Below are positions 1-52,003 of a DNA stretch of 64,000 nucleotides, one piece after another (position 1 is the stretch's first letter; each line of letters opens with the position of its first letter). The translations under genes and the position numbers were made by a program. The notes beneath the pieces were generated by a model. That model had not been told where the DNA came from and searched no databases. It was given only the letters and a program-made list of their open reading frames with translations. This DNA is from a phage, in the sequence record OZ335961.1, one strand, 5' to 3'.

Positions 1-498
1 TTCTTTGAGTACTATAAGCAATCAAAGTATGAAACATACAGTGAAATTATTGAAAAGGAAAGAAACGCACGCTTTGAATCTGTCGCCCTGGAACAACTCC
101 AGATAGTTCATATATCATCTGAGGCAGACTTTAGTGTGGTGTATTCTTTCCGCCCTAAAAACTTAAACTATTTTGTTGATATTATAGCATACGAAGGAAA
201 ACTACCTTCAACAATAAGTGAAAAATCACTTGGAGGATATCCTGTTGATAAAACTATGGATGAATATGCAGTTCATTTAAATGGACGTCATTATTATTCC
301 AACTCAAAATTTGCTTTTTTACCAACCAAAAAGCCTACTCCCGAAATAAATTACATGTACAGTTGTCCATATTTTAATTTGGATAACATCTATGCTGGAA
401 CAATAACCATGTACTGGTATAGAAATGATCATATAAGTAATGACCGCCTTGAATCAATATGTGCTCAGGCGGCCAGAATATTAGGAAGGGCTAAATAA
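1..498 (+). CDS. t: holin T, C-terminal part (5' end outside window)
   Basis: Frame 1 open from base 1 with no stop; C-terminus ...ICAQAARILGRAK recognised as T4 holin. Confidence 0.85.
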   Translation, partial: FFEYYKQSKYETYSEIIEKERNARFESVALEQLQIVHISSEADFSVVYSFRPKNLNYFVDIIAYEGKLPSTISEKSLGGYPVDKTMDEYAVHLNGRHYYSNSKFAFLPTKKPTPEINYMYSCPYFNLDNIYAGTITMYWYRNDHISNDRLESICAQAARILGRAK

Positions 499-1294: not shown

Positions 1295-1513
1295 TTATGT
1301 TTTGCGACTAAATTGTTCATAGTGCTGAATTACCTCTCTCAAACATTTGCATGTGAATGAAAACTTTTTAGCTACACCACATTCAAATATATGTTCTCTT
1401 AAATCACGTGTATCAGTATATCCCATCTCAACGATAAAATGTCTTATTAAATTTTTATCTTTATCATTAAGAGAATTAAAATAATCGGATTTTGAATTAA
1501 TTTCCCTGGCCAA
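1295..1513 (-). CDS. hypothetical protein (72 aa)
   Basis: ORF in co-directional packed cluster. Confidence 0.5.
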   Translation of the reverse strand: MAREINSKSDYFNSLNDKDKNLIRHFIVEMGYTDTRDLREHIFECGVAKKFSFTCKCLREVIQHYEQFSRKT

Positions 1514-1793
1514 ATTGAATCACCTTCAGTTGACGTTTTAGTTCTTTTATCATTTCTTCGTTCATCGCAATATAAAGATCACGTAAAGCTGGTTTTAGCA
1601 TTCCATTTATTGGAGAACTAAATGGACATACATAATCTTTTCCTACAAGCTTTTTAGTGAATTCCATATCGCAGAACTTAAATCCTGGTTCATTGGCATA
1701 AATTCCCCAATTAGTTGACATCATTTTATTGGCATATTCCAATGCCTGGATTTGATTCATAATTCCATCAATTTGAAACTTTTTAATATTCAT
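1497..1793 (-). CDS. hypothetical protein (98 aa)
   Basis: ORF in co-directional packed cluster. Confidence 0.5.
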   Translation of the reverse strand: MNIKKFQIDGIMNQIQALEYANKMMSTNWGIYANEPGFKFCDMEFTKKLVGKDYVCPFSSPINGMLKPALRDLYIAMNEEMIKELKRQLKVIQFGQGN

Positions 1794-2580: not shown

Positions 2581-2590
2581 TATTTATTCC

Positions 2591-3226
2591 TCACAGTTCA
2601 GATGCTACGGTGATTACTGCTTCAATGTTTTCTGCCGAGCGTTTAATGTCAAGATACACATTACCGTTTTTAGCGATTTTACATGACATTCCAATATCAG
2701 TAAATTTCTGAATATGATGTTCCATCATTTTGTATCCAAAAATTCGCATATTTCCGTTGTTGTTAATTTCAAAATTGCGAATTCCGTGAGTGCGTTTTTC
2801 TAAAATAGCAAGATAGTTACTACGGTAAGTTTCAACTTTTTTAAGAACAAATCCATTTTCATCTAAAAGTTTTAACATGAGGTCTTTATCTTCTTCCATA
2901 TCGGAAGTAATCTCACGAGCTTTACGAGTTGCTCGTTTTTTCAGTAGTTCAGGAGCATTTTCCTGCGCGTATAAAGTTGCTGCATTTGAAATAATATCCT
3001 GAGCTTCACCTGTAATGATTAATCCATCACCAGATTTCTCCACCAGGCCTTTTTTAATCAATACCCCAATATTACTATTAACTACTGCGTTACCTAAATC
3101 TGGATGCACCTCACGAACTTCTGCAGCTGTAATGAAATCTTTCTTAGCAATGGTAATTAAAATCGCAGCAGTTTTTTCATTCAGAACATCGTTAGAAGCT
3201 TTGATGATGTAAGTTACTTTAGACAT
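2591..3226 (-). CDS. motA: MotA, activator of middle transcription
   Basis: 211 aa, recognised as T4 MotA; early promoter directly upstream. Confidence 0.9.
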   Translation of the reverse strand: MSKVTYIIKASNDVLNEKTAAILITIAKKDFITAAEVREVHPDLGNAVVNSNIGVLIKKGLVEKSGDGLIITGEAQDIISNAATLYAQENAPELLKKRATRKAREITSDMEEDKDLMLKLLDENGFVLKKVETYRSNYLAILEKRTHGIRNFEINNNGNMRIFGYKMMEHHIQKFTDIGMSCKIAKNGNVYLDIKRSAENIEAVITVASEL

Positions 3227-20461: not shown

Positions 20462-20517
20462 AACTTTATGAAAAATGCTTTAAAACTTTCATGGTATAAT
20501 GAATCTAAGTCCTTCCA

Positions 20518-24271: not shown

Positions 24272-24790
24272 TTAATAGCCTCGGTCTTGACGAGCGAAGT
24301 TTTCGGCATTTTTTAGATAATAAAGTTTAAAGATTTCTTCAGCCGTAAGACCGAGACCTTGGAACATGTTCAGAACAAAATGAAGAATATCAATCATTTC
24401 GAATTTAATTTCCAACTGATCTTGTGGAGATAAGTCAGTAATCAGAGTTTCACGGCGTTCACCATGTTGAGATTTCCACGGCTTCCATACAGCAGATGCA
24501 TCTTTTTCGCCATTGCTCATACCACCAAGAGAAGTCAGAAGTTCGCGGAATTCATCATCAATATAATCTTTTTGATTACGCAGCCAATCAACAACTTCAC
24601 CTGCAGTAGCCAAATCATCAGGATGACGGTTATATTCAGGTTTATCTTTAGCTAAACGAACCTGCAGAGATTTCTGCATATCAAGCATAACTTGCAGCGG
24701 GTCTTTTTCATCACCGAGAATATCCCAGTATTCATTTTGAGCTTTATCAGCGCCTTCAATCAGTTGACTACATTCGTTGAAATGTGGCAT
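24272..24790 (-). CDS. 56: dCTPase/dUTPase (MazG-like)
   Basis: 172 aa; recognised as T4 gp56. Confidence 0.85.
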   Translation of the reverse strand: MPHFNECSQLIEGADKAQNEYWDILGDEKDPLQVMLDMQKSLQVRLAKDKPEYNRHPDDLATAGEVVDWLRNQKDYIDDEFRELLTSLGGMSNGEKDASAVWKPWKSQHGERRETLITDLSPQDQLEIKFEMIDILHFVLNMFQGLGLTAEEIFKLYYLKNAENFARQDRGY

Positions 24791-24791
24791 G

Positions 24792-25442
24792 TTATTTTTC
24801 CTTTCTTATGAAGTTTTCTATCATATGTCTATAGCAGATATTAGGATAACCTGCCTTGACAGCTATTTTATTAAATTTTGTGCGCTTAGGTCTATTATTA
24901 TAAACCCATAATTCATAAAGCGCATCATAACTATTCCATATTTCTCCTCGCCTAGGATTTGGTAAACCATATCGAGGCGAATTTTTACCGCTAAATCTTC
25001 CTTTTCGGGCTTTACTCATATTAGTCTTGGCTTCATCGGATATAATTTTACCTTTATGAGCTAGACGCATTTTGGCTTTAGTTTCTTCTGGAGTCTTTTT
25101 GCCTTTAATCCATGACGGCTTACCATATCTAGGATTATTTTCACCCGAGAAAAGAACAGAGTTTTGGATTTTAAGGGTTTCTATTAATCTACTTGTTAAT
25201 TTAACACCTTTATTATATCGCATTAAATTTACAGCATAATGCAATCCTCTCACATCTGGATATATTTTAGTTAATAATCTATGAGCTATAAAATGCTCAC
25301 GCGCAGTTAACTCAACAAGATTGTTTTTGCCATCTGCTCCTCCCATACATCTAGGAATTATATGATGGCGTTCTTTATATCCGCCAAGATGCCGGCATTT
25401 AGCTTTTGTAATTAAAGCCGAGTAAATTTTTTGGTAATTCAC
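24792..25442 (-). mobile_element. free-standing HNH homing endonuclease gene (216 aa)
   Basis: HNH motif ERHHIIPRCMGG...N...EH..H, two NPRYG repeats and NUMOD3-like KTPEETKAKM. Confidence 0.8.
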
Positions 25443-25512
25443 ATATATCCTTTCAATTCATGGATTAGTAGATTAATTATACAATAAATATATAAAGCAA
25501 TAAGGAGGATAT

Positions 25513-25713
25513 ATGGTACAAAAATTAATGGCACTTGTAGATGCCATAAAAGGTAATAAAAGACGTATAGCTTTTACTATTTCTGCTATGATAGGAATTT
25601 TACTTTGGAATTTTGTTTTATCGCCAGTTGCTATTGCTCATGGTGTTAGTATTCCAGTAATTACTCTCGATACATTCGTAGATTTAGCATTTGCTTTAGT
25701 TGGGTTAATTTAA
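25513..25713 (+). CDS. small membrane protein (66 aa), plus strand
   Basis: AAGGAGG 7 nt before ATG; hydrophobic; no competing minus ORF. Confidence 0.5.
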   Translation: MVQKLMALVDAIKGNKRRIAFTISAMIGILLWNFVLSPVAIAHGVSIPVITLDTFVDLAFALVGLI

Positions 25714-26738
25714 ATCTTAGCATATTTAGATAGCCGCATTTTGGCCATCAACCCTTGGGCAATATTATTTTTCATATATTCCATAATTTGTTCAGGGGTT
25801 GCACCTTCCTTTCTAATCATATCATTAACATCTTTTGATTTCCAGGGAGATTTGTCCCAAAACATAACCCTTTCTCCTGCATCAACCAATTTAGTCATTC
25901 GTTTAATAGTATCAGGGTGACGAGGTTCATTATCTAAAACCCATACACGTCTATCTTTAAATGGAACAATTTCTAGGTCTAATTGACCACCCGTAATAGC
26001 TATACCATTTTCAATAAAAAGTGAATCTATAGGTCCTTCTAGAACATATACATCACCATCTTTGACTCGTTCAACTCCATAGATTTTTGTTGCCTCAGGA
26101 TAAGCTTTGATGGTGATATATTTTTGAGGAGCATCTTTCTTTAATGCACGTCCTTGAAAAGACTCAGCTTTTCCGTTAGCATTATAAATTGGAATAACAA
26201 GACGAGGCTCAGATATTTCCTTTTTATATGTTCCTGGCGCTATACTATTAACTAATTTAGGCCATTCGGTTGTAAACCAAAGATATTTCCATTTATCCTT
26301 TGGAATACAACGAGCTTTTACATATTTTATAATTGGATGGTCTTCCGCCAGTTTATCTAATCTAATGCATGACGGAAGAGATTTAATTATTTTCTTCTCA
26401 GGCTGCTTAGGAAGTTCTTTAGGTTTTTCTACTGGACGACTTTTACCTTTTTCTTTTCTTATTTCAAAGATATACTCACGATATAAATCAGGTTCAAACT
26501 CCTTTAAATATATTCCGATTGGTGCATGATAGTTACAGTTATAACAATGAATATTTCCTTCATTATTATCACCATAATACCATCCACGGGCTTTATTTTG
26601 GTCGGTTTTTGAATCTCCACAAACAGGGCATCTAAACCGTAATTTAAAAGTTGAACTATTATTTACTTGTGCGAATTTAGGTAAATGAGCCAATGCACGG
26701 TATGCAAACTCATTATCAATCCAAGGTATTGATGACAT
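25710..26738 (-). CDS. 61: DNA primase
   Basis: 342 aa; zinc ribbon CPVCGD...CYNC; recognised as T4 gp61. Confidence 0.92.
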   Translation of the reverse strand: MSSIPWIDNEFAYRALAHLPKFAQVNNSSTFKLRFRCPVCGDSKTDQNKARGWYYGDNNEGNIHCYNCNYHAPIGIYLKEFEPDLYREYIFEIRKEKGKSRPVEKPKELPKQPEKKIIKSLPSCIRLDKLAEDHPIIKYVKARCIPKDKWKYLWFTTEWPKLVNSIAPGTYKKEISEPRLVIPIYNANGKAESFQGRALKKDAPQKYITIKAYPEATKIYGVERVKDGDVYVLEGPIDSLFIENGIAITGGQLDLEIVPFKDRRVWVLDNEPRHPDTIKRMTKLVDAGERVMFWDKSPWKSKDVNDMIRKEGATPEQIMEYMKNNIAQGLMAKMRLSKYAKI

Positions 26739-30123: not shown

Positions 30124-30468
30124 TTAAAAGAATTTAAATTTTTTCTTTGACCTTTTATTAAATGCATCTTGTAGTTGCATTGTAATACATTTTTCTACAT
30201 GAGGAGCTAACTCAGCTTTTCTTTCTTGGTCAAGAACAGCAAAGTCCATTACGACTTTTCCATCAACCCAATCTAATTTTGTCACATACACAATGTGTGT
30301 AGAACCATCTTCTAGTTTAATGACAATCTCCTGGATAACATTTTCCATGGCAGATTTAATTATCTTAAGAGATTCACTAAAAAGACGTTCTTTTCTTTCT
30401 TCTTCCCCCTCCGAAGAGGGGGATTCATCGATAATTTCTAGATCTAAATCTAAATCATCTTTATTCAT
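30124..30468 (-). CDS. 40: head vertex assembly protein gp40
   Basis: 114 aa from ATG; track start is GTG; position between uvsX and 41. Confidence 0.7.
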   Translation of the reverse strand: MNKDDLDLDLEIIDESPSSEGEEERKERLFSESLKIIKSAMENVIQEIVIKLEDGSTHIVYVTKLDWVDGKVVMDFAVLDQERKAELAPHVEKCITMQLQDAFNKRSKKKFKFF

Positions 30469-40592: not shown

Positions 40593-40647
40593 GTTTTTCC
40601 TCCATAGAGATTATACTCTAATAAATTAAAGCATAATCTCTTATAAA

Positions 40648-51961: not shown

Positions 51962-52003
51962 AATAAAACCCTTACCTTGAATAGATAAGGGTATTTATTA
52001 TTT

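Follow-up and report, generated by a model that had tools for sequence, protein, structure and literature searches.

The 66-codon open reading frame (ORF) that runs on the plus strand between the dCTPase gene 56 and the DNA primase gene 61 of a Tequatrovirus (T4-type) genome segment, namely the 64,000 nucleotides of phage record OZ335961.1 that were analysed and are referred to as the window, is almost certainly a real gene. Within the T-even phages (Tevenvirinae) it belongs, as a genuine accessory gene, to one subclade; it is already catalogued as phrog_2024 but uncharacterised, and modelling of its ∼7 kD product (66 amino acids) indicates that this is very probably a small inner-membrane protein. 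The ORF was present as the original prediction had described it, with an ATG start and 66 codons. The AAGGAGG Shine-Dalgarno sequence was also found, although its spacing to the ATG is 4 nt and not the 7 nt that had been given, a value which is approximately the distance measured from the centre of the Shine-Dalgarno sequence. The strong hydrophobicity claimed for the translation was reflected in a GRAVY score of 1.28. The stop codons are convergent as proposed, the TAA of the ORF (25711-25713, plus strand) overlapping the stop of gene 61 (25710-25712, minus strand), and the two reading frames share 4 nt. The ORF had further been singled out as the only one on the plus strand, gene t aside, to be free of a better minus-strand gene. 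Among the plus-strand ORFs of at least 45 aa that no minus-strand ORF of greater length covers, it was indeed the sole one with a Shine-Dalgarno sequence and an ATG; the nine others had no Shine-Dalgarno sequence and gave low-complexity translations. Gene t itself we take to be cut off by the left end of the window, since the translation of 136..498 corresponds to the C-terminal part of holin T. The features at the locus are collected in Table 1.

Table 1. Features at and around the plus-strand ORF. Positions are those of the window.
Feature	Position	Strand	Basis or remark
dCTPase gene 56	24272..24790	-	
HNH/NUMOD3 homing endonuclease	24792..25442	-	phrog_655, E=1e-59
Middle-promoter-type site (MotA box TGCTTTA, 11 nt, TATAAT)	25476..25499	-	would drive the HNH gene and gene 56
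T4 late-promoter-like -10 box AATAAATA, A for T at -13	25483..25490	+	ends 22 nt before the ATG
Shine-Dalgarno sequence AAGGAGG	25502..25508	+	read directly; 4 nt 5' of the ATG
ORF, protein-coding gene, 66 aa, phrog_2024 member	25513..25713	+	profile match, synteny, dN/dS
Residues 2-18: amphipathic helix 2-12 and basic cluster K13, K16, R17, R18	25516..25566	+	predicted cytoplasmic
Terminator-like hairpin and T-run, inside ORF codons 6-12	25528..25547	-	likely gene 61 transcript end
Residues 19-42: single predicted TM helix	25567..25638	+	AF2 helix 16-42
Residues 43-66: G44/P48 loop and acidic amphipathic helix 52-63	25639..25710	+	predicted periplasmic or interfacial
DNA primase gene 61	25710..26738	-	convergent with the ORF, stop codons overlapping

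A tblastn search with the window protein gave a match in 696 phage records and a search started from a divergent family member gave 946. The original prediction had named conservation of the reading frame in related genomes as a point to be checked, and the frame was kept in relatives across these 946 records. The synteny search placed the ORF between genes 56 and 61, with position and orientation unchanged, in at least seven T-even genera (Tequatro-, Mosig-, Dhaka-, Gapriver-, Kanagawa-, Jiaoda- and Marfavirus), and site and orientation were likewise kept in the most divergent metagenomic members. No family members were found outside the primase neighbourhood; all adjoin the primase gene. The T4 copy (NC_000866 17738..17935) is 89% identical to the window protein and falls within the 310 nt that separate dam from gene 61, where it is unannotated in NC_000866. 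The RB69 orthologue, about 50% identical and with the same synteny, is RB69ORF029w, and many phage genomes list the ORF as ‘hypothetical protein’. The match to phrog_2024 was full length (E=1.3e-29, residues 2-66 against profile positions 1-65 of 65), and the window ORF is simply another member of the phrog_2024/RB69ORF029w family, from which no difference was apparent and to which no function is assigned. An alignment-based search of 5.8 billion proteins returned 121 clusters, all of them T4-like phage hypotheticals, while a profile search of 1.8 billion representatives returned only 8 hits, which were family members or spurious. No mention of the ORF was found in the papers searched on T4 ribosome profiling, mapping of transcription start sites, small proteins, RB69ORF029w or phrog_2024.

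No convergent ORF was found 3' of the primase gene in seven more distant T4-like genera or phages (Roskilde-, Krisch-, Pseudoteven-, Biquarta- and Lazarusvirus and two other T4-like phages). As the ORF is missing from many T4-like genera, it is a clade-specific accessory gene. Furthermore, ATT replaces the ATG start in T6 and the ORF match is split into two pieces in one T4 strain record; taken together with the genera that do not have the ORF, these cases suggest that the gene is probably dispensable. The T6 record, NC_054907 (locus extract 1501..1701), has the CDS annotated from Met6. A metagenomic T4-like contig contains two family members of different subtypes in tandem (2795..3174, plus strand), the first copy being of the Gaprivervirus type with CATAAATA and AAGGAGG and the second of the Dhakavirus type with a 9-residue deletion in the helix.

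The pattern of substitution was that of a coding sequence under constraint. The dN/dS ratio was 0.13-0.33 (Nei-Gojobori, unsaturated pairs) and, among the Tequatrovirus copies, the variable sites were distributed over the three codon positions as 8/3/14, an excess at the third position. Although overall identity falls to 18-30%, M1, W32, N33 and P38 do not vary and A40, G44, P48 and G64 hardly do. The frame, the length (57-74 aa), the Shine-Dalgarno sequence and the start are kept across genera that are saturated at synonymous sites. Given a frame kept in 946 records together with purifying selection, more than chance must be involved.

The search for a plus-strand promoter in 25440-25512, which the original prediction had recommended, gave a divided result in that no sigma-70-type promoter was found there but a late-promoter-type box was. 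The T4 late promoter lacks a -35 element and is made up of a TATAAATA box spanning -13 to -6, and of 50 listed T4 late promoters 32 are perfect and 9 have A at -13, the commonest natural variant; variant late promoters are active in vitro and some have been tied to RNA 5' ends in vivo (PMC2988020). Taking the window box as -13 to -6, the predicted transcript start would be at ∼25496 and the leader would be ∼17 nt long. A NATAAATA box was found 12-33 nt before the start codon in 17/17 related loci, the background being 0.011 per equivalent stretch. The perfect TATAAATA was present in three of these loci (Kanagawavirus twice and Marfavirus) and the copy in T4 itself has GATAAATA, a rarer variant. 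A Shine-Dalgarno sequence (AAGGAGG, AGGAGG, GGAGG or AAGGAG) was located 4-6 nt before the start in all 17 loci. Since the late-type box, its spacing and the Shine-Dalgarno sequence are shared by 17/17 loci, late transcription is inferred and the ORF, judged on these sequence signals, is probably expressed late.

The placing of the box agrees with that of known late genes. In T4 late genes the box ends 14-35 nt before the ATG (14-29 nt for genes 53, 4, 9, 18, 20, 22, 24 and soc) and the 22 nt of the window ORF fits this range. The form AATAAATA also precedes T4 genes 49, 15 and inh. For gene 49 (endonuclease VII) it stands 29 nt before the start both in the window (51992..51998, minus strand) and in T4 (46892, minus strand). 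The box core ATAAATA occurs 8 times in the window against an expected 39.7±5.5, and 11 times in T4 1-50 kb against 42.6 expected. This 4-5-fold depletion affects both strands of the early region, as would be expected if spurious late promoters were selected against; T4 70-120 kb is not depleted (33 against 33.8 expected). Three of the eight window copies sit 32-40 nt 5' of a Shine-Dalgarno sequence and ATG, these being the copies at soc, gene 49 and the ORF. Another copy, at 2581..2587 on the minus strand, directly abuts the ATG of a 109-aa minus-strand ORF and is too close to be its promoter. A parallel is offered by T4 soc, a short late gene amid early genes that has a TATAAATA box to itself, ∼29-40 nt before its ATG, and that sits 1.3 kb from the ORF in the window. 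However, soc is on the same strand as the early genes and its product is a soluble capsid decoration protein. T4 late transcripts of either polarity are possible (Geiduschek and Kassavetis 2010, PMC2988020), and a dRNA-seq study of T4 (GSE255091) gave 150 transcription start sites of which 22 were antisense.

Several minus-strand signals share the site with the ORF. The terminator-like hairpin inside its first codons probably ends the gene 61 transcripts, and the equivalent site carries a terminator annotation in Yersinia phage fPS-2. Other genera lack the hairpin at this position and it is confined to Tequatrovirus; thus it cannot account for the family-wide conservation, and a conserved terminator as the cause of that conservation was rejected. 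The TGCTTTA-N11-TATAAT pattern of the middle-promoter-type site occurs 3 times in the window against 0.07 expected, and fPS-2 has a predicted middle promoter annotated at the same place. The other two window copies of the pattern are at 40610..40633 (minus strand) and, unexpectedly on the plus strand, at 20476..20500. The plus-strand late box falls within the 11-nt spacer of the minus-strand site and so the two promoters would be divergent and overlapping. In Kanagawavirus and Dhakavirus copies there is a strong minus-strand hairpin over ORF nucleotides ∼110-155 (dG -12 to -17 kcal/mol per 40 nt; minus strand of the locus extracts, 1581..1620, 1610..1649 and 1616..1655). Its G-U pairs would not match on the plus strand and it is not followed by a T-run; it may be an RNA structure in the 3' UTR of gene 61.

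These signals bear on two explanations in which the peptide would be of no consequence. That the ORF is not a gene at all, its frame surviving through the minus-strand signals and AT-richness, would agree with the overlap of the hairpin and the middle-promoter-type site with the 5' end of the ORF and the sequence upstream, and with the lack of a gene at this site in the T4 reference annotation. However, the frame, length, Shine-Dalgarno sequence and start persist despite synonymous saturation between genera, the hairpin is not conserved outside Tequatrovirus and substitutions gather at third codon positions, which leaves this explanation very improbable. The other explanation is a function at the level of RNA, where a late transcript antisense to gene 61, or gene 61 read-through antisense to the ORF, would shut one of the two off and the peptide would be incidental. 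The 4-nt overlap at the stop codons leaves no space for a terminator between the genes, and no plus-strand terminator-like site was found 3' of the ORF for ∼4.5 kb, the first being at 30201; as a result, a late transcript would continue into gene 61 in the antisense direction. The terminator-like hairpin of gene 61 also lies inside the ORF, and there are sites in T4 at which first one strand and then the other is known to be transcribed (PMC2988020). Against this stand the selection on the protein (the dN/dS values given above and residues that are invariant at about 20% identity), the conservation of a strong Shine-Dalgarno sequence and the fact that the overlap with gene 61 is itself not conserved. 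In Jiaodavirus Metamorpho a GC-rich terminator directly follows the ORF and there is an extra gene before the primase gene, and in EAWsc9 a gap of ∼120 nt separates the ORF from the primase gene. An RNA-level function of this kind is therefore considered unlikely. Given that the ORF and terminator of Metamorpho form a self-contained unit and that the minus-strand hairpin is not conserved outside Tequatrovirus, the sequence comparisons point to the protein as the selected product.

The original prediction had also offered the ORF as possible cargo of the endonuclease cassette, that is of the HNH homing-endonuclease gene which is adjacent to it in the window. This idea did not survive the comparison. 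The endonuclease and the ORF occur together in 30 records whereas the ORF occurs in 696-946, and T4 (which has dam at this spot), T6, RB69 and QL01 (with nothing there), among others, all carry the ORF without the HNH gene. Moreover, whether or not a genome has the endonuclease makes no difference to the 60 nt upstream of the ORF. The rarity of co-occurrence and the unchanged upstream sequence refute the cargo idea, and hardly any credence can be given to it. The interval between gene 56 and the ORF is variable, holding dam in T4, the HNH gene in the window, hypotheticals elsewhere and nothing in T6, RB69 and QL01, and from these sequences it looks like an insertion hot spot. The HNH gene with both flanks was found in about 30 of about 570 related records and is a sporadic insertion, and phage ELT1 has both dam and the endonuclease.

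The architecture of the protein was predicted using simple hydrophobicity and charge scales together with AlphaFold. Two AlphaFold2 (AF2) runs, with 17 and 42 sequences, gave mean pLDDT values of 80 and 75, respectively, and the models agreed on helices at residues 2-12, 16-42 and 52-62/63 with a loop at 43-51. The predicted TM helix contains the invariant W32-N33 in its middle, P38 near its end and a small-x-small motif (A-I-A) at its finish. In all lineages the net charge of the N-terminal flank is +1 to +6 and that of the C-terminal flank is -2 to 0; hence the positive-inside rule places the N-terminus in the cytoplasm. The hydrophobicity sum of the main helix ranges from -2.4 to +3.7 kcal/mol across the family on a position-independent Hessa-type scale, which is marginal, and the SAR helix of T4 RI, used as a control, gave +2.2. 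The C-terminal segment gave +2.2 to +9.3 and, being short and polar, should not be able to cross the membrane. A two-TM hairpin topology was rejected given that this segment is not TM-competent in several lineages. The last 25 residues have a mean KD of 1.67 and a net charge of -2, and the protein ends LVGLI. The conserved W32-N33, P38, G44, P48 and an acidic residue at 53 cluster in the periplasmic half of the helix and the loop following it. A polar residue in a TM helix suggests intramembrane helix-helix association, and by this analogy the invariant Asn beside an invariant Trp in mid-helix suggests that helices associate within the membrane. Of the ‘small membrane effector’ that the original prediction had put forward, a small membrane protein is thus supported by the single predicted TM helix, the positive-inside charges and the conservation, and the support stops there.

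Searches for a known family gave little. Pfam, NCBIfam and PADLOC at permissive thresholds yielded nothing meaningful for the ORF and 14 diverse members, a fold search of the AF2 model against viral structures found family members only and a sequence search of the PDB found nothing below E=0.3. The names that the family has been given in databases include ‘Holin’ or ‘holin family protein’, DNA packaging ATPase, dCTP pyrophosphatase and head morphogenesis, with the ‘holin’ label coming from a few records including a UniRef name and one GenBank record. As these product names are mutually inconsistent they are transfer noise and carry no information. The ‘putative head morphogenesis protein’ of T6 was rejected as a best-hit artefact, the same record calling the dCTPase similar to ‘ferredoxin’. 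The ‘terminase’ notes on small ORFs in the T6 record are likewise artefacts of best-hit transfer.

The N-terminus of RI, the T4 antiholin, is a SAR (signal-anchor-release) domain. Residues 1-20 of RI and residues 19-38 of the ORF product share 8/20 identities including FVLSP (pairwise E=0.007, compositionally biased segment), and the FVLSP match is confined to Tequatrovirus members. The similarity being short, compositionally biased and, for FVLSP, limited to one genus, it is treated as a lead and no homology to RI is claimed. RI is a T-even envelope protein, as the ORF product is predicted to be, and in both a weakly hydrophobic helix is present whose composition and hydrophobicity sum are alike, the fraction of weak or polar residues being 0.21-0.53 across the family and 0.42 for the RI SAR. 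However, RI carries its helix right at the N-terminus, ahead of a 70-residue periplasmic domain which binds holin T, whereas the helix of the ORF product starts at residue 19 and has only 24 hydrophobic residues after it. We know of no locus from the classical genetics of T4 r mutants that maps to the ORF site. MgrB, AcrZ and MgtS are very small bacterial membrane proteins that modulate larger ones, and Hok and TisB are type I toxins with cis-antisense partners. With under 70 residues, one predicted helix that has a polar residue at its middle and an overlap with a convergent transcript, the ORF would resemble these, but there is no sequence relationship to any of them.

Two other readings of the protein have to be weighed against that of a stable membrane anchor. 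A holin or pinholin, accumulating late in the inner membrane and permeabilising it to start lysis, would be small, hydrophobic and probably late, as the ORF product is. AF2 places one TM helix (16-42) in this small protein, some records do bear a holin name and one family member gave a sub-threshold hit (E=0.014) to the holin-like YwcE family. Class II and III holins and pinholins (S21-68, T7 gp17.5 and T4 T) are comparable in size, in having a membrane helix and in probable late expression. They differ from the ORF product in that the latter has one TM-competent segment, no lysis cassette, no match to a holin profile in Pfam, NCBIfam or PHROGs and none of the charged, hydrophilic C-terminal tail that is typical of holins. 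No endolysin, spanin or antiholin gene is adjacent, the flanks always being genes 56/dam/HNH and gene 61, and T-even phages already have the essential holin T, which is present in the window. The holin reading is accordingly quite improbable, and the protein is not a holin in its own right. The second reading takes the helix to be a cleavable or releasable signal, with the active species being a 24-residue periplasmic peptide, left after a signal peptidase cut at A40-I41-A42|H43, or a periplasmic protein that exits the membrane in a SAR-like manner as RI does. The invariant Pro is followed 3-5 residues later by small-x-small in 9/9 lineages, which makes cleavage or SAR-like release a live alternative, and the helix matches the RI SAR control in its weak hydrophobicity and is locally similar to it, FVLSP being common to both. 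However, a hydrophobic stretch of ∼20-24 residues is long for a cleaved signal peptide (h-region about 7-15), the N-region of 16-18 residues is unusually long and partly conserved and the would-be mature peptide is itself very hydrophobic. A signal function of either sort is thus doubtful though it deserves to be kept in mind.

The interpretation that we favour, by a modest degree, is of a late-expressed, N-in, single-pass inner-membrane protein, perhaps acting in control of the envelope or of lysis timing. The gp55/gp33/gp45-RNA polymerase would transcribe the ORF from the AATAAATA box at 25483-25490, and the strong Shine-Dalgarno sequence in the short leader of ∼17 nt would direct translation of the 7-kD protein. 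This would insert in the inner membrane with its basic N-terminus facing the cytoplasm; the one helix of marginal hydrophobicity (residues 19-42) would span the bilayer and the short acidic helix would lie on the periplasmic side. Since the conserved residues cluster at the periplasmic half of the helix and in the loop, the protein might act by association within the membrane or at its periplasmic face, either with itself or with a larger membrane protein, in the manner of other membrane proteins of very small size. Reading of the late transcript antisense into the primase gene 61 would be a secondary consequence in the window phage. The guess that the protein serves late control of the envelope or of lysis timing comes from the probable late expression and the likeness of the helix to the SAR domain of RI; the link to lysis is limited to the timing and the weak similarity to RI. 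A role in lysis or envelope timing, argued by such analogy, is possible but tentative. The more specific proposal of an overlooked late inner-membrane or periplasmic factor with an RI-like releasable anchor, belonging to the network of holin T, RI and RIII that times lysis or to another late envelope process, is rather speculative, and the same holds for the other processes considered under this reading, namely late superinfection exclusion and protection against a membrane-acting host defence.

The family is uncharacterised but it is already catalogued and is an ordinary kind of object, so the present value of the finding is modest. In practice, what matters most is that a gene is missing from the T4 reference annotation. 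A transcriptome and proteome study of T4 quantified only features annotated in NC_000866.4 and, given that NC_000866 has no gene at this site, a conserved and probably late membrane-protein gene is systematically invisible in T4 omics. A single convenient tryptic peptide is expected from the protein (LMALVNAIK in T4), and this yield of one peptide may be the reason that it has escaped notice in proteomics. The omission is of consequence since T4 serves as the reference organism of the phage family, and the ORF may prove to be another small component of T-even envelope or lysis control.
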